From: an uncultured Candidatus Binatia bacterium
GTDB lineage: Bacteria; Desulfobacterota; Binatia; Bin18
Reading direction: 5' to 3'
Assembly: GCA_965214605.1 (NCBI GenBank)
Contig: OZ243961.1
Coordinates: 1,103,008 to 1,167,007 of the forward strand
Length of the DNA: 64,000 bases
The notes below the pieces were generated by a model. The model was not told the DNA's origin, did not search any database, and was given only the letters and a program-made list of their open reading frames with translations. Positions 21,798 through 64,000 of the stretch are shown here, piece by piece (the stretch's first letter is position 1; each line of letters begins with the position of its first letter). The translations under genes were made by a program, and so were the position numbers.

Positions 21798-22625
21798 CTA
21801 CTGCTCGAACTGAATCGAAAAGCCTTCGCGCTCGTTGTTCTCCTTATCAATCAAGATCGTGCTGGCCGAACTGTAAGTACCCATCGGATAGAACAGAAAG
21901 CCGCTCACTCGTTGCCCCGGTTGCAGGGTTTCCACCTGCAGAGCCTTACTCTGGCTGCCCGCCGGTGCCGTAATTGGTGTGACCCGTCCTCCCCCGGCAA
22001 CGCGCAGATAAACCTTGTCGAGCTCAATCCCATACGGTCGTGAAGTATTGTTGTGGATCTCAACTTTGATCGGCAGGATGCCGCTGGCCGGCAAATCGGA
22101 CCCCAGTTCGATCTGAGACTCAAAGCCGTCGAAGGGGGTCAGGGTCATATTCAGCCCGCCCTTGGCTTCTTGTTTGTCATACGCTTCCTGGTTAGCAGCT
22201 AAGATACCAAAGGTCCGGGCAAAATTATTATGAAAACCGCCGGGTCGCTCAGCCGCGCCGATCAGCGATGGGACTGCCACCCCGCCCCGCTCGGGGACTA
22301 CGGTGACCCCGTCAGCGCCACAGGTGATGGTGACTCGGCCACCCTCGCCTTGGCGCGCCTCCGTATTAGTGCCAGCAATGATGTAGCCGGGCGAGCCAGG
22401 GGTGGCGACCTGGACCGACTTCACCGGATGGCCCAGTATCTGGACTGCCCGGTAGGCTAAACGGTTGGCCTGTTCACAGCCCAGCTTTGGAACAGACACC
22501 GTCCGAGTCCGGGGCGGCATAGTTGGGGTACAGCTTGTCAACACTAGCCCGGCTGCACATACCGAGAAAAACAGCACTTGGTGATATAACACAACTCCTC
22601 CCAAGAACTCGCGTTGTTCTAGCAT
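21798..22625 (-). CDS. Hypothetical lipoprotein
   Basis: Hydrophobic N-terminus ending in an L-T-S-C lipobox-like sequence. The remainder is a Gly/Thr-rich secreted-type composition with no catalytic motif. Confidence 0.45.
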   Translation of the reverse strand: MLEQREFLGGVVLYHQVLFFSVCAAGLVLTSCTPTMPPRTRTVSVPKLGCEQANRLAYRAVQILGHPVKSVQVATPGSPGYIIAGTNTEARQGEGGRVTITCGADGVTVVPERGGVAVPSLIGAAERPGGFHNNFARTFGILAANQEAYDKQEAKGGLNMTLTPFDGFESQIELGSDLPASGILPIKVEIHNNTSRPYGIELDKVYLRVAGGGRVTPITAPAGSQSKALQVETLQPGQRVSGFLFYPMGTYSSASTILIDKENNEREGFSIQFEQ

Positions 22626-42300: not shown

Positions 42301-42337
42301 AAACCTGTCCCTCTCACTTGTACAGGTGGCAGCGCTG

Positions 42338-43336
42338 TTATTGCCCACCCACCCCGGTGGGTTCCTCTTCGGCGTCTTGATTGTCTTCACCCGGCCGAGC
42401 AACCTGCCCGTTCGTCAGAGTTAAAGACACCTCCATCGGCTCCTGGGAGACAATCTCAACCCCCGGCGGCACCAGAACCGTTATGGTGGCCGGGGCGGTG
42501 CCCGACTTGTGTCCGGCCGCATCAATAAATACCTCTTCCTCACTCAACTGTAACTGTTCCAGCACCCGTTGCGGGCCGTGCACGACAACATCAACCGTGG
42601 TCGGAGAAAGCGCGGCGACTAGGTCCGTATTGCGCACGGTCAACGTGATCTGTGGAAAGGCGCGCGAGATCATCACATCCTGAATCTCAACTCGAACGCG
42701 AACTTGTGGCAGGTTGTAGGCCAGCAGGTCATCCTGCGGCCGTATTAAATCGAGATCAAGCGTCGTCGATTGAGTCAAGCGACTCAGCTGCAGGGGCTCG
42801 GTCAGCACCGACCGGAGACGAGCCACAGCAGGAGCCGGACCGGTGACTTCGACCGTATCAGGCACCAGCTCCATCTCGCCGGCTTGATAGCCCGAGGGTG
42901 GCTCGCCTTGGACGTCGAGATGGATCGGCAAGGTGCGCGTCTCAATCCGGGTAATGTCAAGGTTGATTTGAGACGGACTGATCCGCACCAGCTGTACCCC
43001 ACGCGGCAGACTGAGCCGTTCAGCTCCAATCCGGAAAGACGACTGCCCAGGACGCATTCCGGTCAGGTCCAACACGATCTTTGGTTGGTTGAGTAAGCCT
43101 AAGAGGGTGCGCGGTCCGAGGACTTGGACATCGACCGAAGCAACCTGGACTCCGGTCACGACCAAGTGGGGCGGCAGGTTTCGCCATTCGAGCGGAACGG
43201 TCAGCGACTTTTCAGTATCCCGCTCTCCAGCATTCACCATCAGCCACAGCCCGGCTGCAAAGACCAGAGAAAACACTTTCACAAAAATGTTCCGAAAGAT
43301 GATCCGCCACAGGAGGTGCAATCCGTCCTTAAGCAT
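42338..43336 (-). CDS. cdaR: CdaR (YbbR-like domain) regulator of diadenylate cyclase
   Basis: N-terminal transmembrane anchor followed by repeated YbbR-like beta domains. It sits between cdaA and glmM as in the conserved cdaA-cdaR-glmM operon. The start is approximate and overlaps the cdaA 3' end. Confidence 0.7.
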
Positions 43337-44084
43337 GGACAAAAAACTGTTGGAGCGAGACGCGGAGCGTGGCGACATCTAAGTCATGCTCAATCCGCCC
43401 TTCCCGTACCAAGGACACAGTCCCTTCTTCTTCCGATACTATCACAACAAGCGCGTCGGTTTCCTCGGTCAGTCCGATTGCCGCCCGATGACGAGCGCCC
43501 AGATTTTTATTCACGTTAGGATTAACGGTCAGCGGCAAGAAACACCCCGCTGCGGTAATGCGCCCAGCCTGAATGACAACTGCTCCGTCATGAATCGGCG
43601 AGGCAGTCAGAAAAATACTCCCCAGTAATTCTTTACTCACCCGGGCATCAAGCGGGGTGCCACCCCCGATGTACTCGTTGAGCCCGACGGTTCGTTCCAG
43701 AACGATCAGCGCCCCAATCCGTTTTGAGGCCAACGAAACCGCAGCTCGGCTCACCTCCTCAGCAACCGAGGTATACGTACTCCGGGTGCGTACCCCGAGC
43801 AAGGACCCACGTCCCATCTCGGTCAAGGCCCGACGGATGTCGTTTTGAAACAGCACGACAATAACGAGCAGGATAGAGCCAAGGAAATTATCCAGCATCC
43901 AGTTCAGGGTGTAGAGCTCCAAAACCTGAGAGCCGAGATAGGTCAGAAACAGAAGGACCAAGCCGACCAACATTTGCACCGCTCGAGTCCCCCGGATCAG
44001 ATGGATGATCCAGTACACCCCACAGGCAATGAGGACGACATCAAGGAGGTCTTGCCAGCGCAGCTGAATAAAGAGATCGGACAT
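43329..44084 (-). CDS. cdaA: Diadenylate cyclase CdaA (DisA_N/DAC domain)
   Basis: Three N-terminal transmembrane helices. DAC-domain motifs DGAVVI, RHRAA(IG)LTE. Confidence 0.85.
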   Translation of the reverse strand: MSDLFIQLRWQDLLDVVLIACGVYWIIHLIRGTRAVQMLVGLVLLFLTYLGSQVLELYTLNWMLDNFLGSILLVIVVLFQNDIRRALTEMGRGSLLGVRTRSTYTSVAEEVSRAAVSLASKRIGALIVLERTVGLNEYIGGGTPLDARVSKELLGSIFLTASPIHDGAVVIQAGRITAAGCFLPLTVNPNVNKNLGARHRAAIGLTEETDALVVIVSEEEGTVSLVREGRIEHDLDVATLRVSLQQFFVHA

Positions 44085-44235: not shown

Positions 44236-46077
44236 CTAGGCCTCGGCTGGTGCCGGTGAATCGCTCGCCGCGTTTGGATCTTTGCCAAAGAGTTTAATCA
44301 TCTCGGCAATCTCGGCCCCATCCAGGACTTCTTTCTCCAGGAGATGCTCAGCCATCTTGTGCAAGACCTCGATATTGGTCTGCAACAGCACCTTGGCTCG
44401 CTCGTAGGCGTTCATGATGATCCGACGAACCTCGCTATCAATCTCAATCGCCGTCTGCTCAGAGTATTCTTTCATTTGGGTGAAATCACGGCCCAGAAAA
44501 ATCTGTTCATCTTTCTTACCAAACGTCATTGGGCCGAGCTTTTCGCTCATACCCCACTCACACACCATACGACGGGCCAGTTCGGTCGCTTTCTCGATAT
44601 CGTCGCCCGCGCCGGTCGTGGTATGGCCGAGCACGATCTCTTCCGCCACCCGACCGCCAAACATAATCGCCAAACGCTTGAGCACGTACTCTTTGGAGAA
44701 GGTATGACGGTCGTCGACCGGGACCTGCTGGGTCACGCCGAGTGCCATCCCACGCGGGATAATCGAGACTTTGTGGACCGGATCAGTGCCCGGAGTGAGT
44801 CCAGCGACAAGCGCGTGGCCTGCCTCGTGATAGGCAGTGTTACGTTTCTCTTCAGACGTCAGAATCAGACTGCGCCGCTCGGCTCCCATTAAAACCTTAT
44901 CTTTGGACAGCTCAAAGTCTTCCATACTGACTTTTTCTTTGTTTTGGCGGGCGGCCAGCAGGGCGGCCTCGTTCACGAGGTTCTCGAGGTCGGCCCCGGA
45001 GAACCCCGGCGTTGTGCGGGCCAGGGTTTCGACATCAACGCTCTCGTCGATTGGCACATGGCGACTGTGAACACGCAGAATCTCTTCGCGGCCGCGGACA
45101 TCCGGACGGGGCACCACCACCCGCCGATCAAATCGCCCCGGCCGCAGCAGGGCGGGATCGAGAACATCAGGCCGGTTGGTGGCTGCAATAAGAATGACCC
45201 CCTCATTGGCCTCGAAACCGTCCATTTCGACCAAGAGCTGGTTAAGCGTCTGTTCGCGCTCGTCGTGGCCGCCCCCCAGCCCCGCCCCACGGTGGCGTCC
45301 AACCGCATCAATTTCGTCGATGAAGATCAGACATGGAGCCTGTTTTTTGCCCTGGATAAACAGATCGCGGACGCGGGATGCCCCGACCCCGACAAACATC
45401 TCGACAAAGTCTGAGCCGCTTATTGAGAAGAACGGCACCCCGGCCTCGCCGGCAATGGCACGGGCTAGCAGCGTTTTCCCGGTTCCCGGTGCGCCCACCA
45501 GCAATACGCCCTTGGGAATACGACCGCCTAGGCGGGTAAACTTTTTGGGATCTTTCAGAAAGGCAATGATCTCTTCGAGCTCTTGTTTGGCCTCCTCAAT
45601 ACCCGCAACGTCGCTAAAAGTGACTTTTTGCTGATTTTCGGTCAACACCTTGGCCCGGCTCTTACCAAACGACATAGCCTTGCCCCCACCCATCTGCATC
45701 TGGCGCATAAAGAACACCCAGACACCGATGAGGAGCAACATCGGGAACCATTGGACTAAGACCGCCACATACCACGGATCGCCCTGTTCGGGCTTGGCGG
45801 CAACCCGCACGCCCTGCTCGCGCAGGGTCCGCAGCAATTCAGGATCATCGGGCGAGGGCGCAAAGGTTTTAAAGCGGCTGTCGTCACTAAAGCGGCCATA
45901 AATCGTCTGCCCCTGTATGGTGACTTCGGAGACCTCACCGCGTTTGAGGGCGGAGAAGAAATCGCTAAACACCACCTCAGGTCTTTGAGGCTGCTGGCGG
46001 CTGAATAAATTAAACAGCAGGAGAATCATGAGTCCCAACACCAGCCATAAAGCGAGATTGTGTGAAACTTTGTTCAC
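44236..46077 (-). CDS. ftsH: ATP-dependent zinc metalloprotease FtsH
   Basis: AAA+ Walker A GAPGTGKT, second region of homology, and zinc site HEAGHA. The GTG start at 46077 ([15 protein letters not shown]...) matches the canonical FtsH N-terminus, so the long upstream extension of the listed ORF is unlikely. Confidence 0.9.
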
Positions 46078-46108
46078 TCCTTGCCCCTTTCCATCATACA
46101 CGGCCAAC

Positions 46109-47656
46109 CTAACACAGTTCTGCTTTCTCCGGCAATGGGCTGACCACACACTGACACACCGAACGCGTTGTCGGCGTGACCAGGGCGGTTTTCCCCCGGA
46201 CATAACCGGGCACCCATGCCACTTCAGAATCATCATCTCCCAAAACGACCAAGGGAAAAATCAGACGCAGACGGCGCGGCAGCTTAGCATCACTAAATAC
46301 ATTGTAAACTTTCTTTCGGCCAGCCATGCCTAGAGGAAAAATACGATCTCCGGGCCGCACACTGCGCACCCGAAGGCCTGACGACACCAGCGCGGCGTCA
46401 AAGAACGTCCGCCACGGATCGGCCGTTCGCGCCTGGGCGGGTGTAGCCTGCCACGCGATCGGCTCGCTCAGCCAACACTGCCAGCCGCTGCCGGGTATGT
46501 GGGGGATAGCGGGCAGTCCCAGCCTTTGCCCGCATGAGAGGAGGTAGGTGTAGGATTCAGAGGTAAAACGCTTTGGTTCAGCAATAAGACAGTCCTGTTC
46601 AACCCGGACCTGGAGACTGCCGGGCAGTTCAACAGTGCCCCGAACCCGCCCTTCGGCCAAGGCCCGAACCTGTTCAAGGTGAATAAAGCCAAGGTGGTGG
46701 CCAATGAGTTCGAGCCACTGGCGTAAAATCCGGACGCGCAGGGCGACAGGCTCAGTCGCCCAGGCGCGGACGCGCAGGCCGGGCATGCCGTCCCGCTTAT
46801 ACTGAACGCGCAGTCGGGCCGCCGTTGTCGCGGTTTCGAGCCAAGCCTCTTCTTCGCGTAAGGTATCGGCCAGATGGGCCAAATGACGAGAGATGCGAGG
46901 CGAGAACTCGGTCGCCAGCAGGGGCAACAGGCGGTGTCGAATGCGGTTGCGAGCATAACCGAGATCGGCGTTACTGGGATCGGTCACATAAGACAACCGG
47001 CGGTCGGTCAGATACTCCAAGACTTCCTGCCGGCTGCAGTCCAGCAGCGGACGAATGAGCCGCTTGTCTCCCTGCGTTCCGATCGTGCGACTTGGCGGAA
47101 TACCGCTTAGGCCGCGCCGGGCACTGCCCCGCAGGAGCCGAAACAGCACGGTTTCGGCCTGATCGTCCCGGGTGTGGGCCAGAGCTAGATAGTCCAGCCC
47201 TTCTTGCTCCATCACCGCTTCAAAAAATTGATAGCGCGCGTTGCGCGCCCAGGCTTCAACGCCGTGAGGGGGGGGGGAGAAGTCCAGTTTCTTTATAAAG
47301 CAGGGCAGCTGCCACAGCCGACACAGCCGTTCAACATATCGCTGTTCGTGGTCGGCTTCCGGCCGCAGCCCATGGTTGACGTGGAGTACGCTGAGGTGTG
47401 AGGGGACACTGCTCGGCTGGGCTAGCAGGGCGCTCAACAAGGCGACAGAGTCTGGTCCACCCGAAACCCCGACTCCGAGACGAACGACCTGGTTGCCCGG
47501 CCCAGCCTGTCCTGGGGAAGAAAAAAACCGCCTCAGAGCAGTCTCGACTTTACGTTCGAGCGGCAAAACCCCTCCCTTTTTTCCCCCTGAACGGGGGCTT
47601 TGACCTTCCATACGTCTACCGTACGGCCCCTTGTGACGTTGCGGGAACCTTGGCAT
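46109..47656 (-). CDS. tilS: tRNA(Ile)-lysidine synthetase
   Basis: PP-loop [11 protein letters not shown] and a TilS C-terminal substrate-binding domain. The exact start is uncertain. It contains a 10-bp C run (coding strand) that encodes PPP. Confidence 0.8.
47268..47277. repeat. 10-bp poly-G homopolymer (poly-C on the tilS coding strand)
   Basis: Read directly from the sequence. It encodes the PPP in ...FSPPPHG of TilS. Confidence 0.9.
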
Positions 47657-50659: not shown

Positions 50660-51841
50660 ATGGTGCCCGAGCCCGTTCTCGAACAGATTTCTCTGAGCTT
50701 TGATCAACTCCTCGCTCGTGCGGGTGAGGGCGCACAGCTGTCTGCCGCCCAGGGTTATCGCCTAATCCACTGTACGGACGAGGAGTTCCCGGCCTTGTTG
50801 GCGGCTGCGGGCGACCTGCGTGATTGTCACAAAGGGCAGACAGTCACCTACTCACGCAAGCTCTTTCTACCGGTCACCAATCTGTGCCGAGATCGTTGCT
50901 CGTACTGCACCTTTCGTAAGGACCCACGCGATCCCGCCGCCTGGACTATGACGCGCAACGACCTCCACCAGTGGCTCTCCCGAGGTCAAGCCCAGGGTTG
51001 TAAAGAAGCCCTGATGTGCCTGGGCGACAAGCCCGAACTGGTCTCTCGGGCGTACCGCACCACGTTGGCCGATTTAGGCCACCGGACGACAACCGAATAC
51101 ATCTACGAAGCGTGCCAGATTGCGCTGTCATACGGCATTCTGCCCCACACTAACGCGGGCATCCTGAGCTACGACGAGATGCAATGGCTCAAAGATGTGA
51201 ATGTGAGCTTAGGCCTGATGCTGGAAAATATCAGCCCTCGGTTACGCCAACGCGGTATGGCCCATTTTTCAGCTCCGGACAAAGAACCCGCCGTTCGGGT
51301 CAAGATGATCCGCGAAGCTGGTGAGCTGGAAATTCCCTTTACGACCGGAATTCTGATTGGCATTGGAGAGACGCGCGAGGAAGTGGTCGACAGTCTGCTC
51401 GCCATCCGTGACATCCACCAGGAGTACGGCCACATTCAAGAGGTCATCATCCAGAATTTTCGGGCCAAACCTGATACCCGCATGGCCGACGCTCCCGAGC
51501 CGGAGGGCCTGGAAGTGGCCAAAACGGTGGCCGTCGCCAGGCTGTTGCTCGGTGGGCAGATGAACGTCCAAGCTCCGCCCAATCTCAACCCGGTCGATCA
51601 TCGCCTCCTGTTGCGTGCTGGCATTAACGACTGGGGAGGGATCTCGCCGGTCACCAAAGACTACGTCAATCCCGAAGCGGTCTGGCCACATCTAGACACC
51701 CTGGCCCAGACCTGTCGAGAGGAGGGTTTCTGGCTGCGTGAGCGACTGGCCATTTATCAAGAGTATATTGATCGGCCCGGATTTCTCCTGCCGGCCCTGC
51801 GTCCACGGACTGAGGCATTACAGGCCCAGATCAGCGCCTAA
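50660..51841 (+). CDS. cofG: FO synthase subunit 1 (7,8-didemethyl-8-hydroxy-5-deazariboflavin synthase CofG), radical SAM
   Basis: CRDRCSYCTF radical-SAM cysteine triad (CxxxCxYCxF) and CofG family length. Confidence 0.85.
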   Translation: MVPEPVLEQISLSFDQLLARAGEGAQLSAAQGYRLIHCTDEEFPALLAAAGDLRDCHKGQTVTYSRKLFLPVTNLCRDRCSYCTFRKDPRDPAAWTMTRNDLHQWLSRGQAQGCKEALMCLGDKPELVSRAYRTTLADLGHRTTTEYIYEACQIALSYGILPHTNAGILSYDEMQWLKDVNVSLGLMLENISPRLRQRGMAHFSAPDKEPAVRVKMIREAGELEIPFTTGILIGIGETREEVVDSLLAIRDIHQEYGHIQEVIIQNFRAKPDTRMADAPEPEGLEVAKTVAVARLLLGGQMNVQAPPNLNPVDHRLLLRAGINDWGGISPVTKDYVNPEAVWPHLDTLAQTCREEGFWLRERLAIYQEYIDRPGFLLPALRPRTEALQAQISA

Positions 51842-51912
51842 GAAGGCTGTCCTCTCGTCCCTTTTTGGTCTGAAGTATTGACGTTTTTCGCTCCACAATA
51901 AGGAGACCTACT

Positions 51913-53199
51913 GTGGCAACCGACGGTCTTGCGAGTATTCTTGAACATATCGATCCTCAGGTCAGCACGATTCTGCACCGGGCCTTGGAGGGACAAGAAG
52001 TGTCCTGGCAGGAGGCACTGCTTTTGTGCGAGACAAATGGGCTCGATCTCCAGGCCGTGTGTCTAGTCGCGGATGAGATGCGCCGGCGTCAAGTCGGCGA
52101 GGTGGTGACGTATGTGATCAACCGGAATATTAACTTCACCAACGTCTGCATTAAACACTGCACCTTCTGCGCTTTTAGCCGTGAATATCGTGAAGAACAA
52201 GGCTATTTTCTCCCCGAAGAGGAAATTATCCGGCGGGCTCAACAAGCTGTTGATATGGGTGCCACCGAGGTGTGTATGCAGGCCGGCCTGCCGCCCAAGA
52301 TGAAGGGCGAGCTGTATATCGATCTGACCCGAGCAGTGAAAAAGGCCCTCCCGGACCTGCATATTCATGCCTTCTCCCCTGAAGAGGTCTTGTACGGCGC
52401 AACGCGGGCGGCGGTCTCGATTCCCAACTATCTAGCCGCCCTCAAGGACGCGGGCTTGGATACCCTGCCCGGCACGTCGGCCGAAATTCTTGACCAGGAC
52501 ATTCGTGATCGTATTGCCCCGGGGCGCATCACCACAAAACAGTGGATTGAGGTCATCACGTCCGCCCATGGCCTCGGCATTCCAACGACCTCAACGATCA
52601 TGTACGGCCACATCGAGACCCCGATACATTGGGTCAAGCATATGAATCTGCTACGTGATATCCAGAAGGAAACCGGAGGCTTTACCGAGTTCGTTCCCCT
52701 GTCCCTGATTCACCAAGAAGCACCCATGTACCAGCGCAAACTGATCAAAAACATGCGTCAAGGCGCAACTGGCACAGAAGTCATTAAAATGCACGCAGTC
52801 GCCCGCCTCATGCTCGGCCCGACGTTTCGGAATATCCAGTCATCGTGGGTCAAAGAGGGCCCAAAGCTGGCTCAGTATCTGCTGAATATAGGGGCCAACG
52901 ACCTGGGCGGGACCTTGATCAACGAGAGTATTTCCACCTCTGCAGGCGCCCAGTATGGGCAGCTCGTCCCGCCTAAAGAACTCCGTCGTCTGATCCGTGA
53001 TATTGGCCGGACTCCGGCTGAACGTGGCACTACATACACGCTCCGAACAATCTTCAACGGCCAGGACGAAGAGTTAAGCCCGCTCGACATGGTCGAAAAT
53101 CCGGACGAGCAGTTCGGTTCCTATCGGAAGCTGACCGCCTCGGATCAGTTCCGCTACGTACATCCCTTTGAACGCGAGAAGCAAGCGGCTTCTCACTAA
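51913..53199 (+). CDS. cofH: FO synthase subunit 2 (CofH), radical SAM
   Basis: CIKHCTFCAF cysteine motif. GTG start with an AAGGAG ribosome-binding site. It is paired directly with cofG. Confidence 0.85.
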   Translation: MATDGLASILEHIDPQVSTILHRALEGQEVSWQEALLLCETNGLDLQAVCLVADEMRRRQVGEVVTYVINRNINFTNVCIKHCTFCAFSREYREEQGYFLPEEEIIRRAQQAVDMGATEVCMQAGLPPKMKGELYIDLTRAVKKALPDLHIHAFSPEEVLYGATRAAVSIPNYLAALKDAGLDTLPGTSAEILDQDIRDRIAPGRITTKQWIEVITSAHGLGIPTTSTIMYGHIETPIHWVKHMNLLRDIQKETGGFTEFVPLSLIHQEAPMYQRKLIKNMRQGATGTEVIKMHAVARLMLGPTFRNIQSSWVKEGPKLAQYLLNIGANDLGGTLINESISTSAGAQYGQLVPPKELRRLIRDIGRTPAERGTTYTLRTIFNGQDEELSPLDMVENPDEQFGSYRKLTASDQFRYVHPFEREKQAASH

Positions 53200-53235
53200 C
53201 ATCACCGGGCGGCATGCCCTTTCCCCCAGATCAGC

Positions 53236-54189
53236 ATGCCACGCTGTGACGATCTCAGCATTACCGCTCTTGCTGGAGGGGTGGGTGCCGCCCGTTTCTT
53301 ACGTGGCCTAGTACGTGTCATCAATCCGGCCAATCTGAGTGTGGTGGTGAACACTGGCGATGATGACGAATTTTTTGGCCTATACGTGTCTCCAGACCTC
53401 GATACCATCACCTATACGCTCGCCGATGCTGTCGACCATGACAAAGGCTGGGGTCTGCCGGACGAGAGCTTCCACTGTCTTAGCGGGTTGAGACGCTATT
53501 ATCCCGAGACCTGGTTTAGTCTGGGTGACGCCGACCTAGCGACCCACCTGTTTCGGACTCAGCAGCTGAGACAAGGGCACACCCTGAGCCAAGTCACCGC
53601 CGCTATTGTCCAAGCCTGGGACGTGCGCGCCACGGTCTTACCGATGAGCAACGATCCGGTCCGGACGGTGGTCCACACCGAAGCGGGTGCTCTGCCGTTT
53701 CAGGAATATTTTGTCAAAGGTCGGGGTGAAGGTCGGGTCGAACGCATCGAGTTACGAGGGCTGCCGGACGCCCGCCCGGCGCCGGGCGTGTGTGAGGCGA
53801 TCCAGTCTGCACATTTGGTGATTCTCCCGCCCAGCAACCCGTTGGTGAGCATCGGGCCTATTCTCGGCCTACCTGGCGTCCGCGACGCCCTGCGCCAAAC
53901 CCCAGCGTTGGTTGTCGGCATCAGTCCATTGGTAGCCGGTAAGCCGATTAAAGGGCCGGCCGACCGTATGCTCAGTGGCCTCGGCATTGAAGCCTCGGCG
54001 ACTGGAGTGGCCGGCCTGTACGCCGACTTTCTGGACGCTTTCGTGATCGATACGCAAGATGCGGCTCAACGGGCCAGACTTGAAGCCCAGGGGCTGATGG
54101 TTCGGGTAACCGATACAATTATGAGTGATATGGAGAAATCAATTGCCCTGGCCCGGACGGCTGTTGAACATATGAAACGTGAAACATAG
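53236..54189 (+). CDS. cofD: 2-phospho-L-lactate transferase
   Basis: N-terminal ALAGGVGAARFLRGL glycine-rich motif of the CofD/UPF0052 family. Confidence 0.85.
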   Translation: MPRCDDLSITALAGGVGAARFLRGLVRVINPANLSVVVNTGDDDEFFGLYVSPDLDTITYTLADAVDHDKGWGLPDESFHCLSGLRRYYPETWFSLGDADLATHLFRTQQLRQGHTLSQVTAAIVQAWDVRATVLPMSNDPVRTVVHTEAGALPFQEYFVKGRGEGRVERIELRGLPDARPAPGVCEAIQSAHLVILPPSNPLVSIGPILGLPGVRDALRQTPALVVGISPLVAGKPIKGPADRMLSGLGIEASATGVAGLYADFLDAFVIDTQDAAQRARLEAQGLMVRVTDTIMSDMEKSIALARTAVEHMKRET

Positions 54190-54232
54190 GAGGGATATCT
54201 CCTAGGCCGCTGTATCCCCGAAGGATTCTAAT

Positions 54233-54985
54233 ATGAGTACGATCGCACTCATCCCTATCCCCGATATTCCCCAAATTCAACCCGGTGACGATCTGGTCTC
54301 GCTCCTTCTCGACGCGATTGATCGGTCCAAGGTCGGCCTCAAAAACGGCGATATTCTGGTTATGTGCCAAAAAATCGTCTCCAAAGCCGAGGGTGCAGTG
54401 GTTGATTTGAAGACCGTCGAACCTTCGTCTTTTGCCCACCAGATTGCAGACCAGTGGGAAAAAGACCCCCGTATCGTCGAGGTTGTGCTACAGGAGAGCA
54501 AGCGGATCGTGATGATGAAAAATGGAGTAGTGATAACCGAAACAAAACAGGGCTGGGTGTGTGCTAACTCGGGAGTCGATGCGTCAAATACCCTAGCCGA
54601 CGATATCGTCATCGTCTTGCCTAAAGATCCTGACCGGTCGGCCAAAAGCATGCGGGTCGCTATTCAAGAACGCCGCAATATTTCGATCGGGATCGTTATC
54701 ACCGATACCTTTGGCCGTCCGTGGCGTGACGGTCTGGTCGAGTTTGCGCTGGGCGTCTCGGGATTTGAGGGCCTGCTTGACATGCGCGGCAGTGAAGACC
54801 TCCAGGGCCGAGAACTGCACCATACCATCGTCTCGGTTGCTGACGAACTCGCCTGCGCCGCCGGCCTGCTGATGGAAAAGAACGCGGCCGTACCGGCCGT
54901 GATTGTTCGTGGTTACAAGTACACTCCGGCCGAGGGCAGCGGACAGGTCTTGATCCGGCCGGCCGAGGCGGATTTGTTTCGCTAA
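54233..54985 (+). CDS. cofE: Coenzyme F420-0:L-glutamate ligase (CofE domain)
   Basis: About 250 aa in the CofE pattern (…GDILVMCQKIVSKAEG…ANSGVD…). It completes a cofG-cofH-cofD-cofE cluster. Confidence 0.8.
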   Translation: MSTIALIPIPDIPQIQPGDDLVSLLLDAIDRSKVGLKNGDILVMCQKIVSKAEGAVVDLKTVEPSSFAHQIADQWEKDPRIVEVVLQESKRIVMMKNGVVITETKQGWVCANSGVDASNTLADDIVIVLPKDPDRSAKSMRVAIQERRNISIGIVITDTFGRPWRDGLVEFALGVSGFEGLLDMRGSEDLQGRELHHTIVSVADELACAAGLLMEKNAAVPAVIVRGYKYTPAEGSGQVLIRPAEADLFR

Positions 54986-55412: not shown

Positions 55413-56648
55413 TTGCATCCCGGCCAGGCCATGACGACGAGACAAGATAGAAGCTCTCTCACTCTCCAAAGCCTGTTGCTTGCCGTCTGCCTAGTCCTGT
55501 CGACCGTTCCGGGCTTCTCGTCTCCACCCCCCGGTGTCAGCCTCATCGAGGGCAGTCTGACCCCTTTTTTTCACAATCGGCCCCTTTCGGCCTTTCGGGT
55601 CTACGCATTCCACGGCCACACTCCGCACCCGATTCCGTTTCAGATCGACGAACGGGACCAACGAGAGCGCTGGATTGTGAGGCACGGTTCAAAAGCCAAG
55701 CAGGACAGCCCTGCCGCGGTGTTTGACGCCAACGACGCCATTGTGGTGATGAACCGCGACCTGGGGCAGCGTGGCGACCCGTCCGTTCTTCCGGACCAGG
55801 CCAAGCGCTGGGCCGAGATCCGGGTCGGAGAAGAGACGAACCGGCTGGGTTTTGTCTATGTCGGGGTCTTTCCCCCAACACACACCCCACCACGCATCAC
55901 CCAGCCTTACGCCCGCTACGACCCGGCCACCGACCGGATCTATGCCGAGCGCTACGCCCTGGCCTTTGACGCGCCACTGCCAACCCATTTTGCTCCGGTT
56001 GAGCGGCTCGGCCACTTTGGGACCAATACTATAACCGGAGTCAAAGCCGGCGCCGAGGTCCGCTTGCTAGGCGGTTTGCTACGCTTCCAGCGTACCGAGG
56101 TCGATCTACGCAGCAGCTTGCGTGGCTACCAGTCCGGCCCGGTTCGGGTAATCCGCCAGGCGCGCTACTGGGTGCCGCTGCCGTTTGGCCTGCGCACCTC
56201 GGGCAAGGTCAATCTCATTTTCTACCGGGACTTTGTTGAGGGCAGCGCACGGATCAAGCTGAAAATCCCGCCCCGCCTCGTGCTGGCGGAGGGCGAATTC
56301 ACGACCTATTTTGACTTTCTGGACCTGCGCGGGGCGCGTCCGCTGCTGAATGGCCGCCTGAGCCGCTGGGCGGCACTGTGCCTACCGAGCGGCCGGACAC
56401 TTGTTCTTATTCCCCGGCTTGAGGACGGCTTGAGCAGGCTTGAGCAGCGCGTCTATTACGGTGGCGCTCAGCCCCATTTCGGCTTTCAGTTTTCGGAAAT
56501 TGGTCGTCTGGAGAGCGGCTCGCATCGCCTATCGGTTTTCGGCCTGCTGCTCGACACGACCGCCCCGGACACGGTTCAGCGGGCCGCCGATATCTTTCTC
56601 TCCCCCCCCCAAGTGGCCGCGCAGCTACTCAATGCCCAGCTGGACTAG
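55413..56648 (+). CDS. Hypothetical secreted protein
   Basis: Signal peptide LTLQSLLLAVCLVLSTVPGFSS. Beta-rich composition. Contains a 9-C homopolymer encoding SPPQ. No known motif. Confidence 0.45.
   Translation: MHPGQAMTTRQDRSSLTLQSLLLAVCLVLSTVPGFSSPPPGVSLIEGSLTPFFHNRPLSAFRVYAFHGHTPHPIPFQIDERDQRERWIVRHGSKAKQDSPAAVFDANDAIVVMNRDLGQRGDPSVLPDQAKRWAEIRVGEETNRLGFVYVGVFPPTHTPPRITQPYARYDPATDRIYAERYALAFDAPLPTHFAPVERLGHFGTNTITGVKAGAEVRLLGGLLRFQRTEVDLRSSLRGYQSGPVRVIRQARYWVPLPFGLRTSGKVNLIFYRDFVEGSARIKLKIPPRLVLAEGEFTTYFDFLDLRGARPLLNGRLSRWAALCLPSGRTLVLIPRLEDGLSRLEQRVYYGGAQPHFGFQFSEIGRLESGSHRLSVFGLLLDTTAPDTVQRAADIFLSPPQVAAQLLNAQLD
56602..56610. repeat. 9-bp poly-C homopolymer
   Basis: Read directly from the sequence. 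It lies within the 3' end of the 55413-56648 ORF (…FLSPPQ…). Confidence 0.9.
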
Positions 56649-57743
56649 AGACCAGGCGGCAACCGCCATCTGACGACACTGTTCCCTATAGCCCAACGCC
56701 TGAGGCGAGCTGGCGTTGCCGTCAAGTCCGCGCTTGTACACCCCCTGGATAATGGCGCCAATACGGAACAGGGCAAATACAATGTAGAAGGTCCAGTTCG
56801 GAATCTGCTTTCGTCCGGTCAGCTGGCAGTAGCGCGCCACATAGTCGTGCTCAGACGGAATCCCATAGCTGGCGTAATTAAGCCCAGTGATATCGCCCCG
56901 AATATCATCCGGCACATGGTAGGGGAGACAGTTGTGGGCCAAGTCGGCAAATGGAGCACCGAGCGTACTCAACTCCCAATCGACGACCGCCAACACACGC
57001 GGTTCGGTCGGATGAAAGATTATATTCTCTAAACGAAAGTCACCGTGGGAGATTGTGGTTTCGTCATCGACTGGCAGATGCTCGGGCAGCCACGCTATGA
57101 GCCGTTCCATCTCTGGAATATCTTCGGTTCTGCTGGCCGCATACTGTTTTGTCCAACGGTCAACCTGACGCGCCATATAGCCGCCAATCCGTCCATAGCC
57201 CTCTAGGCCAACCGCCCGAAAATCAACCTGGTGCAGGGCGGCGATCGCCTCGACCATTGCCGCATACACCCGTCCCCGCTCGTTCGGCGTCATATCACGC
57301 AGCTCATAGCCGCGTAACACCCGTCCATCAATAAAATCCATCAGATAGAAATCTGTGCCGATCACAGACGGGTCTTGACACAGCACGTAGGGCTTGGCGA
57401 CCGGCACGTCGGTGTTGCACAGCGCTGAAATGATCCGAAACTCCCGGTCAACCGCATGGGCCGAGGGCAGCAGCTTGCCAGGCGGCTTTTTACGCAGCAC
57501 GTAGCGCCGGCCGGCCGTATCCGTCAACACAAAGGTCGGGTTCGACATACCGCCCCGAATCTGTCCAACATGCATGGGTGGGGTGAAGTCGGCTAGGTGT
57601 CGGCACATATAACGCTCAAGGTGAGCCTGGTCGAAGTGGTGTTGCTCAAGCACCGGGGCGGTATCGGTGGTCAGCGAAACCAGCGGTAATGCCTCGGCCT
57701 GAGCGTTGGTCGCCATCGGTATCTCTCCTTGTCCGTCGCTCAT
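56625..57743 (-). CDS. Phosphotransferase of the APH (aminoglycoside/choline-kinase-like) family
   Basis: Brenner motif HGDFRLENIIF (HGD...N) and DWE(L). Typical of the acyl-CoA-dehydrogenase-associated APH clade. Its 5' end overlaps the paralog by 4 nt. Confidence 0.75.
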   Translation of the reverse strand: MSDGQGEIPMATNAQAEALPLVSLTTDTAPVLEQHHFDQAHLERYMCRHLADFTPPMHVGQIRGGMSNPTFVLTDTAGRRYVLRKKPPGKLLPSAHAVDREFRIISALCNTDVPVAKPYVLCQDPSVIGTDFYLMDFIDGRVLRGYELRDMTPNERGRVYAAMVEAIAALHQVDFRAVGLEGYGRIGGYMARQVDRWTKQYAASRTEDIPEMERLIAWLPEHLPVDDETTISHGDFRLENIIFHPTEPRVLAVVDWELSTLGAPFADLAHNCLPYHVPDDIRGDITGLNYASYGIPSEHDYVARYCQLTGRKQIPNWTFYIVFALFRIGAIIQGVYKRGLDGNASSPQALGYREQCRQMAVAAWSLVQLGIE

Positions 57744-58828
57744 ACGCCCCGCTCAACCAAGTCCCAGGCGGCGGTCGCCAACTGCTTGCACTTTTCACCA
57801 CGGGTGATGGCTTCGGGCGAGCTGGCATTGCCATCAAGCGCCCGTTTGTACACCCCCTGGACAATTGCCGCCAGTCGGAAGAGCGAAAACACCACGTAGA
57901 AGTTCCAGTTTTCAATAGCCGAGCGGTCCATCTGTTGGCAGTAGCGAGCCACGCACTCCTGCTCAGATGGAATGCCGTAGGTGGTAACATTGAGGTGGGT
58001 GATGTCCCCCCGGATATCGTCCGGCACCTGATAGGGTAGACAGTTATAGGCCAAATCGGACAGGGGCGCACCGAGCGTACTCAGCTCCCAGTCAACAACG
58101 GCTAACACCTGGGGCTGGGTGGGATGAAACAGCAGGTTCTCTAAGCGAAAATCGCCATGCACAATCGTGGTCTCATCGTCATCCGGCAGATGCTCGGGCA
58201 GCCAGGCTATGAGCCGTTCCATGGCCGGCAGCTCATCCGTTTTGCTCGCCTCGTACTGCTTGGACCAGCGCCTGACCTGGCGGCCCATATAGCCGCCGAT
58301 CCGACCGTAGTCCTCAAGCCCAACCGCCCGGAAATCAACCTGATGGATCTTGGCCATAGTATCAATCATGGTTTCATACACCGCCCGCCGCTCGCTCGGA
58401 GCGAGGTCGGGCAGCTCATACCCACGAAACACGCGACCCTCAACAAAATCCATAATATAAAAATCCACACCCAGCACTAACGGGTCCTGACACAGGACAT
58501 GCGGTTTGGCGACCGGCACATCAGTATCCCACAGAGCCGAGATGATTCGAAATTCTCGGTCAACCGCGTGGGCCGAGGGCAGTAGCTTGCCAGGCGGTTT
58601 TTTGCGCAGCACGTAACGCCGTCCAGCCCCATCCGTCAAGATGAAGGTCGGGTTCGACATCCCGCCCCGCACCTGTCCAACCGATAGCGGCGGACTGAAG
58701 GCCTCGATATGTTCGGCCATGTAGCGCGCCAGCGCGGCCTCATCAAAACGATGCTGGTCAAGCACTGGAGCAGTCTCAGCCGTGAGCGAAGTGAGCGGGC
58801 TGGTCTCTACTGCCTGGATTGTCGCCAT
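57740..58828 (-). CDS. APH-family phosphotransferase, a tandem paralog of the downstream gene
   Basis: Same motifs (HGDFRLENLLF, DWEL). About 70-80% identical to its neighbour over most of its length. Confidence 0.75.
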   Translation of the reverse strand: MATIQAVETSPLTSLTAETAPVLDQHRFDEAALARYMAEHIEAFSPPLSVGQVRGGMSNPTFILTDGAGRRYVLRKKPPGKLLPSAHAVDREFRIISALWDTDVPVAKPHVLCQDPLVLGVDFYIMDFVEGRVFRGYELPDLAPSERRAVYETMIDTMAKIHQVDFRAVGLEDYGRIGGYMGRQVRRWSKQYEASKTDELPAMERLIAWLPEHLPDDDETTIVHGDFRLENLLFHPTQPQVLAVVDWELSTLGAPLSDLAYNCLPYQVPDDIRGDITHLNVTTYGIPSEQECVARYCQQMDRSAIENWNFYVVFSLFRLAAIVQGVYKRALDGNASSPEAITRGEKCKQLATAAWDLVERGV

Positions 58829-58933: not shown

Positions 58934-59491
58934 TCAGCCAACGCGAGTTTGTCGCTCACGACCAAGGGTCACGATCCGCAACGTCCCGTCAACCTGTTCG
59001 AGCACCGTACAGGAGCAGTGATCCGGTTCAAAACACACCATCCGCTCATCTTTCCTCGCCACCCCCACCGCAGCATTGATGGCCACAAAATGGGTCGTGA
59101 TCAAGCTCGACGTTTGTAGGCTGCACAGAAAAGCGACCAGGTGCTCCTTCCAGTCCTGATAGAACTGCGGCAGGTCACTCCAGCGGCCGCGCAAGGCGCG
59201 GCGAATCCAGGCCGCGCGTTCGGCAAGATCTTGGCCAGGCGAAGGAATTTCGGCCACCACAGGCTCAATCCGCGCCTCACACTTCCACCTCCTCTCAAAC
59301 GGAACGGCGGTATCGCGGGCGCGCTGCAGCGGACTGCTAATCAGAGACAGGCGGCCGAGCGGTTCGAGCCGTTTTGCCAGGGCTGCTGCCTGGCGGTGTC
59401 CAAGCTCATTGAGTCCAGGGTCTGGATCTTCCCCAAATCCGGCTTGAGGCTGGCCGTGGCGGACGAGGTAGAGTTTGGGAGAAGACGGCAT
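58934..59491 (-). CDS. Histidine-phosphatase (phosphoglycerate-mutase-like) family protein
   Basis: LYLVRHGQ catalytic RHG motif. The start is set at the internal Met (MPSSPKLY...). Confidence 0.75.
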   Translation of the reverse strand: MPSSPKLYLVRHGQPQAGFGEDPDPGLNELGHRQAAALAKRLEPLGRLSLISSPLQRARDTAVPFERRWKCEARIEPVVAEIPSPGQDLAERAAWIRRALRGRWSDLPQFYQDWKEHLVAFLCSLQTSSLITTHFVAINAAVGVARKDERMVCFEPDHCSCTVLEQVDGTLRIVTLGRERQTRVG

Positions 59492-60464
59492 CGTGTATTC
59501 CTTTCGTGCCAAAAAATGGGCAGCCATGTTGCTTTTCGGGGGAGGGTGAGAACCTCTTGTTCGGCCTTAGAGTTATCCACTAGGTGGCTCAGCAAGGATA
59601 CTTTTGCCTAAAAAATCAGGGCCAGATGGCCGCTTCAGGGCCCTCCCCAGTGCAGGTACTCCAGTGTGGCACGATACATGCCTTTTCTCTACTGTACGAT
59701 GCCTCCACACTCACCCGGCAGGACAGGGAGAGACCATGTATGACGCATGGGAGGGCTGGCTATGCCCGGGGGGTGACGCAATGTTCCCTCCTGAGGGGAC
59801 ACCGCGGCCAGCTGCAGAATTACTGCCGGAAAAGATTCAAGGTCTGCCCGATGGAGAAATTCTCCGTCTGCAGGAAGCGGCCGAAGGCACTCTGCTGAAT
59901 ATGGGATTCACCTCATAGCAGCTATAGCGACGGGACTGGGATGGAAAAAATCGGGCCGTTTGATCCACTGCCACGGATCATTGACGCACCGGAGCGGGCG
60001 GACATGGGTTGAGCGTGGCCTCAAGCAGCGCCGACAGACCCTAAAACTTTTCATCGACGCTATTTACCACGACTCAAAAATCTTCAAGGACAGCGTTATC
60101 CTCGAAGAGACTGTTCGGCCACCAGGGTTCGCCCCTCGTGTGTCAGCCTTGATCCCTCGTGAGACCTGGGGTGCCATATTACTGTCACCGAATCCGAGAC
60201 CGCGACAGCCAAATCTCCATCTTGGAAGATAACCTTCGCTGCCCATCCGAGGCCTCCTAGGGACTTCACTGACAGCCCATGAAGCGGACCTTCCCTTGGT
60301 CTTTGAAGCCTCTCAGAGCCGCCCGGTTGGGACTTACCCGGACCGCCCCGCTGTCCTTAGCCCCAGGCTCGCCTGAACACGCAAACGGTCGCAGCGGTGC
60401 TCCAACTCAGCCTCTTTTGAGTCTTCGTTTCCAGCTTAGCAAACGGGTGTTGAGTCGGGCGAGA

Positions 60465-60475
60465 GGGGGGGGGGG
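60465..60475. repeat. 11-bp poly-G homopolymer, intergenic
   Basis: Read directly from the sequence. It lies in a region about 600 bp long with no convincing gene. Confidence 0.9.
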
Positions 60476-60812
60476 ACAGCCAACGGATTTGTCCAAACGC
60501 GAACGCCCCTAGGGAGCGAGCGTGTTGTCTTGCCGGATTGATGATGATTTTCTTGATCCAAAGGGCGGGGCTGACTCAATGTCCGGCATCCTGGGCATCA
60601 TGGATGTCTACAAAGCTGGCCCCATCGGTCGACGCCTCCGGCACGGACATTACCGACGAGAAGGTCATCTGCGGCTATGTACAATCTGTCTGTGTCGGGA
60701 AGCCTCTAAATCGCCACTGCGCCTTGGAGCATTTTGAGCAGGATCGAAGAGGGCATAGTTTGCTGTCTAGGCCAATTGGCGGATCTATCCCAGCAGCCGG
60801 GGGATTGGCCGA

Positions 60813-61697
60813 TTAGGCCCGTTTTGCCTCGACCGCCACCTCCAGACTATGCGTCCCACCACCGAAGGCCACCCCTTTTAAGGGCGTCACATCGCTGTAA
60901 TCTCGACCCCAGGCCAGGACGACATGTTGGTCGGTTGGAATCAGGTTATTGGTCGGATCAAAATCCACCCAGCCCTGACCAGGGCTGTAGACCGACACCC
61001 AGGCGTGGGAAGCCGCGGCTCCAATCAAGGACGCCGAGTTAGCCTGGCCAGACGCTGGCACGGTTTCGAGATAGCCGCTGACATAGCGGGCGGCCAGGCC
61101 TAAGGATCGAAGACACGCAATAGCCAGCTGAGCATAATCCTGACACACCCCCCGGCGATGGGACAAGACCTCGTAGACCGAAGTCGCCGCGTTGGTGAAG
61201 TCAGGGTCATAGGTCAGGTCGTGATATATGCGCTCCATCAGCTCGCGGACCGCTTTGAGCAGGCAGCGTCCAGACGAGAACGACGGGGCGGCATATTCGG
61301 CAAAAGCCGAGGCGGCAGCGATCATTGGAGAGTCCAAAACAAATTGACGGGCGGTCAGCTGCTCCGGGGCGAGATTGTGGAGCAGATCCCGGCCGACTTC
61401 CTCCCAGGCCAGCGAAGCCTCCAACGGGGGAGACGCAACAGGACTGAGCAGCACCGTGCTCGACGCGCTTACCTCAAGCACGGTATGAGATTCCTGGATC
61501 GCAAAGTAGACCACCCGGTTGCCAAAAAAATCCTCACGTTCCTGATACACCGTCGGGACCGGATTGATCCGGAGTTGGCTGGTCTGACACTGTTGGCGCT
61601 CAAAAGAGCGCGGCAACAGATAGGCTTCATTCTGACAGTGCGAGACCGGCAGACTATAGCGATAGCGGGTCGTATGGAGGACGGTGTAGGGAATCAT
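60813..61697 (-). CDS. Transglutaminase-like cysteine-protease-fold protein
   Basis: Catalytic Cys region GVCQDYAQLAIACLRSLG. His/Asp region SHAWVSVY...WVDFDPTN. N-terminal Bact_transglu_N-like segment. Confidence 0.8.
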   Translation of the reverse strand: MIPYTVLHTTRYRYSLPVSHCQNEAYLLPRSFERQQCQTSQLRINPVPTVYQEREDFFGNRVVYFAIQESHTVLEVSASSTVLLSPVASPPLEASLAWEEVGRDLLHNLAPEQLTARQFVLDSPMIAAASAFAEYAAPSFSSGRCLLKAVRELMERIYHDLTYDPDFTNAATSVYEVLSHRRGVCQDYAQLAIACLRSLGLAARYVSGYLETVPASGQANSASLIGAAASHAWVSVYSPGQGWVDFDPTNNLIPTDQHVVLAWGRDYSDVTPLKGVAFGGGTHSLEVAVEAKRA

Positions 61698-64000
61698 ATC
61701 CGATGTCCCATCAATTGTTGTTGGGCTTCGATATGGCTGAAGTAGGTCTGACTCAGGGCGTCGGAAAGGGCTAGCAGAAAGGCTCCGAGCTGGGCAAACA
61801 GTTCGTCTAGCTTTTCATACACCGGCTCTTCCCACACCGTCTGCGACAGCCCCTCAATATCCGTTGTGCGCAGCTTGGTCAGGGCTTGCAGCGCGAGGCG
61901 CTGGACCGGGCTGCGGTGCGGCAAGCTGGCCTTGCGAGGCAAGCGCTCGGCATGCTCCTGGAGGCGGACGAGCTGATAGCCGAGCGAGCGGGGGTTGCTC
62001 TCATCGTGCAATAACAGGTCGAGCACAGCCTGGGCGTCTATCTGGCTGTAATAGCGCCGCCGATAGGTCCGTCGGCTGTCGGTCATGGTCAGCACCACCT
62101 CCCACAGGCCACTCTGACCGCCAGTTGTCATCTCGCAGGCGATATGCAGCAGACTGATGGAGTGCAGGGCACGTTCCAGCCGCCGGCCCATCTCCAGAAA
62201 TCGAAAACCTTGGCCCCGGATCATGTTTTCAGCCATCAGCCCGGTAAAGGCGGCCAGCCCGGCGATCACCCGAGACAGGCTTTGCAAGGTCTGCTCCAGG
62301 CTCAGCCCCGAGGAGAGATCCCGGTCAAGCGTGTGCAGCATCCGGACCGTATCGTCGGATAGACGATCACGGACTGTCCGCTCGGCCTGCAACAGGGCGT
62401 CAAGCGTAAAACGCAAACTGCCCGGGCGCGTCGGCTCAAGGATGACCGCCAGCAGCTCGGGCTCGTCAGCCACCAACCGCCGGTTGACGCCATGGCTCAC
62501 CAGGTGCAGATAAGTCACTGCTTGATGGGTCACCGCGGACAACAATCCCGGCAAATAGGTATCATGATGGACGACCTCGGTGTCCAGCAGACGCGACAAC
62601 ATCTCCCGATACACTCGGGCGCTGCTCTCCATGCGCTCGGTATAGCGTCCGAGCCAAAACAGATTATCGGCCACTCGGCTCGGAATCTCTCCGCCACTCC
62701 GTGTCAGGGCAACCGGCCGCTCGGTCGAGGGCAACAGACTCACTGTCTGTTCGGGCTCTGAGGCCAAGACCCAGATATCCTTACTCACCCCGCTATCGTG
62801 ACTCGACACCTGCCAGACATCCGGGTCGGGCGCCACCCGCGCCAGCCCACCTGGCATCACCACATAACCATCGTTCCGCGCCACCAAAAAACTGCGCAAC
62901 ATCAGGGGACGCGGTGCCAGTCTCCCATCCACAAAAGTCGGGGCGGTGGACACCGTAATCGGCTCTTGAGCAACGTAACGGTGCGGCTGAGCTTTGATGC
63001 GGGCCATGAGGGCTTCTCGCTCGGCCGCGGACAGCTGAGCACCAAAGACAGCTTCAGAGCCGGCATGCGGAACGGTCGGTTTAATCACCAGACGCTCCAG
63101 ATGGGCTAGCACATAGCGCCGCTCCTCCTCCCCACCACACCACCAAGTGGCAACAGACGGCAGGTGCAAATCCTGTCCCAGGAGTTCTCTGCAGAGGACC
63201 GGCAAAAAGGCCAGCAGACCAGGATTTTCGAGGATGCCGACGCCCAGCGGATTGGCAACTACGGTCTGATGCGTGCGCGTCACTTGGACCAGCCCAGGGA
63301 TGCCCAGCAGCGAGTCTTTGCACAGCTCCAGCGGATCACAAAACGTATCGTCAACCCGCCGCAATACGGCGTCAACCCGCTGGAGGCCGTCCAGGGTTTT
63401 GAGCCACAGACACCCGTCTCGGACGGTCAAATCGCTCCCCTGGGCCAAGGTGTAGTCGAGGTATTGGGCGACATAAGCGTGTTCAAAATAGGCCGCGTTC
63501 CCCGGCCCCGGCGTCAACAACACAGTCCGGCCCGGCTCCTCTCGGTGGGGGACTAGGGTGGCCAGGGAGCTGCGCAAGGCCCGAAAATACAGGGCCAAGC
63601 GATGGACATGGGCATCACGGTACAAACTCGGAAAGACCCGCGATAGGGTCAGTCGGTTCTCCAGGGCATAGCCGGCACCTGAGGGCGCTTGGGTCCGGTC
63701 GTCAATGATCCGTATACTGCCGTCACGGGAGCGGACAAAATCAGCCGCATAGGAAAACAGAAAACGCCCGGACGGCGGACTGATAGTGACACAGGCGCGT
63801 AAAAATCCGGGATGGCTATAGATCAAATCAAGCGGCAAGAAGCCCTGTCTGACAAGTTTCTGTGGGCCATACAGGTCGGCCAGAATAAGATTATACAGCT
63901 CAGCGCGCTGAATCAGACCGCGTTCAATACCGCTCCACTCCTGGCTAGTCAGCAGGACCGGGATCAGATCAAGCGCCCACGGCCGCTCCCCGCCTCGAGT
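61694..64000 (-). CDS. Circularly permuted ATP-grasp (type 2) fused to an alpha-E domain. The 5' end lies beyond the window.
   Basis: The CP ATP-grasp region carries VATWWCGGEEE and LVIKPT. The C-terminal alpha-E domain carries NLFWLGRYTER. The reading frame stays open upstream of the listed Met (...ADLYGPQKLVRQG-MPLDL) to the window edge. A 4-nt overlap links it to the transglutaminase-like gene. Confidence 0.75.
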   Translation of the reverse strand, partial: TRGGERPWALDLIPVLLTSQEWSGIERGLIQRAELYNLILADLYGPQKLVRQGFLPLDLIYSHPGFLRACVTISPPSGRFLFSYAADFVRSRDGSIRIIDDRTQAPSGAGYALENRLTLSRVFPSLYRDAHVHRLALYFRALRSSLATLVPHREEPGRTVLLTPGPGNAAYFEHAYVAQYLDYTLAQGSDLTVRDGCLWLKTLDGLQRVDAVLRRVDDTFCDPLELCKDSLLGIPGLVQVTRTHQTVVANPLGVGILENPGLLAFLPVLCRELLGQDLHLPSVATWWCGGEEERRYVLAHLERLVIKPTVPHAGSEAVFGAQLSAAEREALMARIKAQPHRYVAQEPITVSTAPTFVDGRLAPRPLMLRSFLVARNDGYVVMPGGLARVAPDPDVWQVSSHDSGVSKDIWVLASEPEQTVSLLPSTERPVALTRSGGEIPSRVADNLFWLGRYTERMESSARVYREMLSRLLDTEVVHHDTYLPGLLSAVTHQAVTYLHLVSHGVNRRLVADEPELLAVILEPTRPGSLRFTLDALLQAERTVRDRLSDDTVRMLHTLDRDLSSGLSLEQTLQSLSRVIAGLAAFTGLMAENMIRGQGFRFLEMGRRLERALHSISLLHIACEMTTGGQSGLWEVVLTMTDSRRTYRRRYYSQIDAQAVLDLLLHDESNPRSLGYQLVRLQEHAERLPRKASLPHRSPVQRLALQALTKLRTTDIEGLSQTVWEEPVYEKLDELFAQLGAFLLALSDALSQTYFSHIEAQQQLMGHRI

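Follow-up and report, generated by a model that had tools for sequence, protein, structure and literature searches.

The 64,000-nucleotide (nt) stretch of contig OZ243961.1 analysed here (the window), from an uncultured Candidatus Binatia bacterium, ends in a fused gene that joins a circularly permuted ATP-grasp domain to an alpha-E domain, followed on the same strand by a transglutaminase-like gene. Profile matches show that the fused gene encodes a single 847-amino-acid polypeptide comprising a complete predicted ligase domain of the circularly permuted ATP-grasp type and a complete alpha-E domain. The three domain families of the ATP-grasp/alpha-E/transglutaminase amidoligase system thus lie side by side on one strand. 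The best explanation of the locus, held with moderate confidence, is a chromosomal two-gene Binatia module that belongs to this known system, in its long-established fused form, and would work through a ligase paired with an amide hydrolase.

The window holds the 3´ 2.3 kb of the fused gene (61694..64000, minus strand), encoding residues 80-847 of 847 and the stop codon. The frame is open from base 64000 to the terminal TGA at 61694-61696, with 768 sense codons, and the TTG at 63838 given as the start in the list of open reading frames (ORFs) is an effect of the window edge rather than the real start. A public protein (P0001) with the N-terminus MLDADLAVPAPAP matches all 768 residues with 100% identity and has a length of 847 amino acids; therefore, 79 residues (237 nt) of the fused gene lie outside the window, with the start codon 237 nt past its edge. 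The original prediction, made from the sequence of the window alone, had likewise placed the 5´ end beyond the edge. An independent metagenome contig (L001) aligns with positions 64000-60479 of the window at 99.9% identity without gaps and extends 209 nt farther upstream.

Both domain assignments had been proposed earlier from the motifs VATWWCGGEEE and NLFWLGRYTER, which are indeed located in the translation of one polypeptide, and both were borne out by full-model matches in the Pfam database. In the partial protein encoded by the window, CP_ATPgrasp_2 (PF14403; COG2308; formerly DUF404/DUF407) was matched over residues 14-390 with 499 bits (E 9e-150; model positions 1-374 of 374; cut-off 32 bits), and the same match was found for full-length homologues. 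Alpha-E (PF04168; COG2307; formerly DUF403) was matched over residues 440-754 with 240 bits (E 4e-71; model positions 2-294 of 294; cut-off 20.8 bits). Scores of this size lie well outside what chance would give. An NCBIfam search of the locus returned no match. On the minus strand of the window, the ATP-grasp half occupies 62528..63961 (P0001 residues ~93-570, with the catalytic domain at ~93-491), and the alpha-E half, containing the ER motif FWLGRYTER and the second motif GRRLER, occupies 61697..62689. Between both Pfam envelopes lies a linker of ~25 residues (62690..62764, minus strand; sequence ...EPEQTVSLLPSTERPVALTRSGGE...), which scores low in the predicted local distance difference test (pLDDT) in both structural models described below.

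The alignment of 36 fused homologues indicates that the invariant columns of the ATP-grasp domain are retained, for example TPG242-244, H253, D301-P302, WWCG365-368 and K486-D487. In the alpha-E domain, the same alignment identifies F527, W528, L529, G530, R531, Y532 and E534, together with G684, R685, E688 and R689, as invariant residues. These fall into the motifs FWLGRYxER (residues 527-535) and GRRLER (684-689), both of which are invariant.

The ATP-grasp half is homologous to PDB 3N6X, its only solved relative (phmmer, E 1.3e-81 over P0001 residues 48-491). This chain, from Methylobacillus flagellatus, was deposited as a 'putative glutathionylspermidine synthase'; it resembles the ATP-grasp half but is an unfused protein of 474 amino acids without alpha-E. 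No solved chain was matched by the sequence of the alpha-E half. Modelled alone with AlphaFold (AF2), this half reached a pLDDT of 82.8 and a predicted template modelling score (pTM) of 0.85, and it is nearly all-alpha, with sixteen helical segments and one beta-hairpin. A Foldseek comparison of this model with the PDB found no relative, the best match having an E of 0.3 and a template modelling score (TM) of 0.25. The full-length AlphaFold model was poor (pLDDT 65.8, pTM 0.44).

The transglutaminase-like gene (60813..61697, minus strand) encodes 294 amino acids with matches to Bact_transglu_N and Transglut_core (PF08379 and PF01841; COG1305) of 86 and 80 bits, respectively. Its ATG at 61697-61695 overlaps the stop codon of the fused gene in the junction sequence ...CGG ATA TGA, so the 4-nt overlap proposed by the original prediction is read directly as ATGA at 61694-61697. 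The triad Cys185/His231/Asp247 aligns with the catalytic residues of 3ISR, a homologue of solved structure, and is conserved among homologues, in an alignment from which the rows of L008 (masked), L009 and L018 were disregarded. A transglutaminase-like gene is found downstream of ATP-grasp/alpha-E in most of the loci examined, including every fused one.

The fused form is widespread and corresponds to an already annotated family, so it is not new. All of the best 120 protein clusters are fused, with lengths of ~845 amino acids and identities of 54-100%, and one open frame runs across both halves in eight genome loci, five from Binatia and three from alphaproteobacteria. The Joint Genome Institute (JGI) gives fused proteins a composite product name, and their label in the NCBI Prokaryotic Genome Annotation Pipeline (PGAP) is 'circularly permuted type 2 ATP-grasp protein'. 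A collection of annotated plasmids and chromids yielded matches in a single piece, over 87-97% of the query, from Granulicella, Ralstonia, Caballeronia, Burkholderia and Azospirillum. A single annotated PGAP coding sequence spans both halves in the cultured Granulicella and Caballeronia; for Ralstonia, Burkholderia and Azospirillum, where the matched stretches have no listed feature, the fused form is implied by the single-piece match. Sinorhizobium meliloti carries the split form in the same collection.

Rough neighbour-joining trees were built for each half (the partial unfused copy of L049 being disregarded in the ATP-grasp tree), and the fused copies cluster apart from the unfused ones in both. 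Identities follow the same division: 40% fused-to-fused versus 32-38% fused-to-unfused for the ATP-grasp half, and 27-32% versus 19-25% for the alpha-E half. The grouping of fused copies in both trees leads to the conclusion that the fusion is old and that its halves evolved as a unit. Furthermore, the ratio of nonsynonymous to synonymous substitution rates (dN/dS), calculated against two relatives, lies at 0.15-0.17 for the ATP-grasp half and 0.17-0.19 for the alpha-E half, with 0.11-0.14 for the linker between them and 0.18 for the transglutaminase-like gene, showing that all parts of the module are under purifying selection. The original prediction regarded the fusion as direct evidence that the two domains act together. 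That reading is reasonable, and it is strengthened by the congruent clades and the equal purifying selection, but the fusion is not fresh evidence, given that 120 of the 120 best clusters are fused and already annotated.

Since both genes are adjacent yet separate in many genomes, a sequencing or assembly frameshift could in principle have joined two neighbouring genes. This explanation has practically no chance of being correct: it is refuted by the same fused frame in the independent contig L001, by the eight genome loci and 120 protein clusters, by the single PGAP coding sequences of Granulicella and Caballeronia and by the purifying selection on the linker.

The limits of the module were drawn from its relatives. 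Among genomes, the closest are Candidatus Binatia assemblies with 79-84% protein identity, in which the region is syntenic, and the upstream context given here is deduced from relatives at that distance. In the three closest, the gene upstream of the fused gene encodes an alpha/beta hydrolase, and in L002 a terminator-like hairpin comes after this gene, ahead of ~480 nt of non-coding DNA. Fused homologues at a greater distance (55-61% identity) share only the fused gene and the following transglutaminase-like gene, with variable flanks. In the alphaproteobacterial loci (L007-L009), a large partner of 1,139-1,143 amino acids, with Bact_transglu_N, Transglut_core and DUF2126 domains, lies directly upstream of the fused gene; no such transglutaminase-DUF2126 gene (~1,100 amino acids) was found in the window or within 10 kb in the Binatia loci L002-L006. 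No Anbu-like or proteasome-family gene or other partner is adjacent to the module or present among the window ORFs of at least 250 amino acids, the size range that was scanned. The unit in the Binatia lineage therefore probably consists of two genes. The upstream partner genes that had been expected beyond the window are probably absent from this lineage, and what had been described as a three-gene system is here two genes plus the remains of a second, unfused ATP-grasp gene.

The non-coding DNA before the fused gene was also inspected for promoters. The pattern TTGAGT-17/18-TA(C/A)ATA is conserved by eye in the alignment and was not called by a consensus scan; no promoter is claimed. About 500 nt past the position equivalent to base 64000, in the relatives L002, L003 and L006, the intergenic region ahead of the fused gene carries two strong hairpins (L002 9380-9510). 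The same region holds a near-consensus sigma-54 -24/-12 element, TGGCACGATATCTGCA, with one mismatch, which is oriented antisense to the fused gene and is conserved in three of the five relatives. This element could be a product of chance, or it could belong to a small antisense or divergent transcript.

On the other side of the module, convergent with the transglutaminase-like gene, the window contains a pseudogene of an unfused circularly permuted ATP-grasp paralogue (59736..60741, plus strand; tblastn). With the intact L002 orthologue as the query, its matches are spread over three frames, and the comparison of both sequences reveals 17 indels, including 14 that disrupt the reading frame. 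At the same place, L002 has an intact ATP-grasp gene (an open frame of 574 amino acids) followed by an alpha-E gene (323 amino acids). The window lacks ~1.4 kb of the L002 sequence (~13227-14600), so that the ATP-grasp gene is without its 3´ end and the alpha-E gene is missing altogether, and the deletion junction is common to the window and the independent contig L001. Judged by this comparison, a second, unfused ATP-grasp/alpha-E pair is lost from the module of this lineage.

The gap between the transglutaminase-like and histidine-phosphatase genes, in which the pseudogene lies, differs among the relatives. It holds the intact unfused pair in L002 (13183-16500), a restriction-endonuclease-like gene and an ORF of unassigned function in L003 (13278-15188) and a 1,181-amino-acid leucine-rich repeat (LRR) protein in L004 (13393-16938), and it is empty in L005 (13188-13235). 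Unfused pairs near a fused module are present in L002, L049 and Caballeronia. It is conceivable, although on the doubtful side, that the Binatia module is a self-sufficient minimal form in which the fused protein has made the separate pair redundant, so that the window would catch a replacement in progress. If true, this would amount to a natural experiment showing that fused and unfused forms share one job, and it would mark the smallest gene set for reconstitution.

The module can be compared with several known clusters. In Granulicella tundricola (ACIX9_RS19305-19295), the fused protein also has 847 amino acids and is 42% identical over residues 23-845; this cluster and that of Caballeronia (LDZ26_RS20810-20800) share the same architecture, with a small transglutaminase-like gene directly downstream. 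The annotated order in both genera is a large transglutaminase family protein, the fused ligase and a small transglutaminase family protein. Rv2566-Rv2567 of M. tuberculosis are presumably a further example of this fused-ligase cluster. The Binatia module differs from the clusters with the large transglutaminase-DUF2126 protein in lacking the upstream gene of ~1,100 amino acids, whose place is taken in the closest relatives by the alpha/beta hydrolase gene.

The unfused operon of ATP-grasp (COG2308), alpha-E (COG2307) and transglutaminase (COG1305) genes (Valas & Bourne 2008; Iyer et al. 2009; Piasecka et al. 2018) has the same families in the same order. However, its first two proteins form one polypeptide here, whose identity to unfused copies is only 32-38% for the ATP-grasp half and 19-25% for the alpha-E half. 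The unfused operon often includes Anbu, which is neither adjacent to the Binatia module nor found among the scanned window ORFs, and the unfused copy of this genome is a pseudogene.

According to the proposed mechanism, the ATP-grasp half would convert a carboxylate into an acyl-phosphate and then couple it with an amine through an amide or isopeptide bond. The alpha-E half would be the obligate 1:1 partner of the ATP-grasp half and would most likely recognize or hold the substrate. The transglutaminase-like thiol enzyme would then hydrolyse or transfer the resulting bond, acting as an eraser or processor. In this lineage, the module would work without the giant transglutaminase-DUF2126 protein or the Anbu protease. 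A peptide or protein-linked substrate seems slightly more likely than a free metabolite.

This arrangement recalls, by analogy only, the Pup ligase PafA, the depupylase Dop and the proteasome, in which a ligase for carboxylates and amines has as its counterpart an amidase that can undo or prepare the bond. A proteasome-like protease is likewise added in unfused relatives of the ATP-grasp/alpha-E system. PafA and Dop are glutamine-synthetase-like, with folds unrelated to the ATP-grasp or transglutaminase-like ones. Unlike the case of Pup, we know of no tag protein for the ATP-grasp/alpha-E/transglutaminase system.

Previous work on the system offers some orientation. It has been predicted that the ligase adds peptide tags and that the transglutaminase-like protein reverses them (PMC3495828 and PMC5666114, both citing Iyer et al. 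2009). A Yersinia ATP-grasp homologue of the CP_ATPgrasp_2 family releases phosphate from ATP (PMC6376114), and beyond this activity of one homologue the literature searched contains no ligase or alpha-E activity. The original prediction had called the system biochemically uncharacterized, which agrees with this record and with the Anbu structure papers, where hypotheses on its function are described as untested. By analogy with homologous clusters, nitrogen limitation would be the most likely physiological setting: the Burkholderia cenocepacia cluster I35_5080-83 is NtrC- and sigma-54-dependent (PMC5491218), and the homologous loci L049 and L050 have ammonium transporter, P-II and NtrBC-like genes within 5-8 kb.

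Several observations weigh against the reading of the locus as an amidoligase module with its own hydrolase. Family-wide, there is no known substrate, product or target, and no conserved small ORF for a target peptide, of the kind that the original prediction had suggested looking for, adjoins the module. The role of the alpha-E half is a guess because the full-length model (pTM 0.44) is too poor to judge contact between the halves. No nitrogen-regulatory genes were found near the locus in the window, and the search for a sigma-54 promoter upstream of the module in the relatives gave matches at the chance rate, none on the correct strand. Moreover, Yersinia pull-downs with Anbu as bait gave no sign of the operon proteins forming a stable complex (PMC6376114).

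An alternative that retains the same enzymes is a small-molecule substrate: the product of the ATP-grasp half would be an amide metabolite, of the gamma-glutamyl type or another (for example a nitrogen store, or a polyamine or amino-acid conjugate), which the transglutaminase-like enzyme would degrade or transfer. This is a serious possibility, albeit short of an even chance. The deposition of the only solved relative as a putative glutathionylspermidine synthase fits it, as do the DUF2126 partner in other phyla (a putative amidoligase according to Pfam), the NtrC-dependence of the Burkholderia cluster, the covariation of these domains with urea-metabolism genes in marine metagenomes (PMC3597751) and the lack of a conserved target-peptide gene nearby. 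Nevertheless, the unfused system is commonly associated with the proteasome-like Anbu, which points to protein substrates, and enzymes with this transglutaminase-like triad usually act on peptides or proteins. Rv2411c and Rv2567 made no GABA (gamma-aminobutyric acid)-trehalose, which is weak evidence since this was the sole metabolite tested (bioRxiv 10.64898/2026.04.15.718621).

The alpha-E domain could also be the acceptor itself, so that its invariant glutamates would be modified by the ATP-grasp half in a self-modifying protein and the transglutaminase-like enzyme would reset the switch. The invariant Glu and Arg residues (including E534, E592, E594, E670 and E688) and the proximity ensured by the fusion are in line with this idea, for which LysX provides a precedent, as an ATP-grasp enzyme that ligates onto a glutamate of the carrier LysW. 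However, a substrate fused in cis would allow one turnover per molecule, the invariant residues occur in ER pairs of a kind seen more often in binding or catalytic sites, and the exposure of the glutamates and their reach to the active site find no support in the poor full-length model, making this version improbable. A role in anti-phage defence or as mobile-element cargo, suggested by the variable inserts 3´ of the transglutaminase-like gene in relatives (restriction-endonuclease-like in L003, an LRR protein in L004), is very unlikely indeed: PADLOC gave no match, the surroundings are of the housekeeping type (F420 biosynthesis, FtsH, TilS and cdaA-glmM), base composition is flat over the region and the module is syntenic in five Binatia genomes.

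The ATP-grasp/alpha-E/transglutaminase system is widespread in bacteria and has been linked to Anbu and nitrogen limitation. The additions made by the present locus are small: a clean two-gene version without a DUF2126 or Anbu partner, an even constraint on the halves and the linker, and an adjoining unfused paralogue in decay. Fused two-gene modules are attractive minimal targets for reconstitution, for which cultured Granulicella or Ralstonia would be more practical sources than an uncultured genome.

Downstream of the module, on the same strand, lie the histidine-phosphatase gene (58934-59527) and two tandem genes of APH-family phosphotransferases (56625-57743 and 57740-58828, minus strand), which overlap by 4 nt and share ~74% DNA identity with each other's orthologues. 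The pair and the histidine-phosphatase gene are kept in all Binatia relatives; in L005 these genes start ~47 nt after the transglutaminase-like gene, and their co-transcription with the module is possible in some genomes. Rfam and tRNA scans found nothing near the locus. Farther away, a coenzyme F420 biosynthesis cluster (50660-54985, plus strand) comprises two radical-SAM genes (likely CofG and CofH, the second with a CofH C-terminal region), CofD and the gamma-glutamyl ligase CofE, and is followed by a 411-amino-acid ORF without a Pfam match (55413-56648). A conserved trio of cdaA (c-di-AMP cyclase), ybbR-domain and phosphoglucosamine-mutase-like genes (40903-44084, minus strand) has FtsH (44236-46236) and TilS (46109-47656) upstream.

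Finally, some minor features were observed elsewhere in the window. Three ORFs have no Pfam match at E <= 1e-5: 1858-3996 (plus strand, 712 amino acids), 10991-12067 (plus strand, 358 amino acids) and 21798-22625 (minus strand, 275 amino acids). GC content peaks at positions 11800-13420 (0.66), a stretch with an AT skew of -0.21 and several overlapping long ORFs. In a 450-amino-acid ORF at 12064-13416, the match to a DCC1-like thiol-disulfide oxidoreductase is confined to the last ~110 residues.

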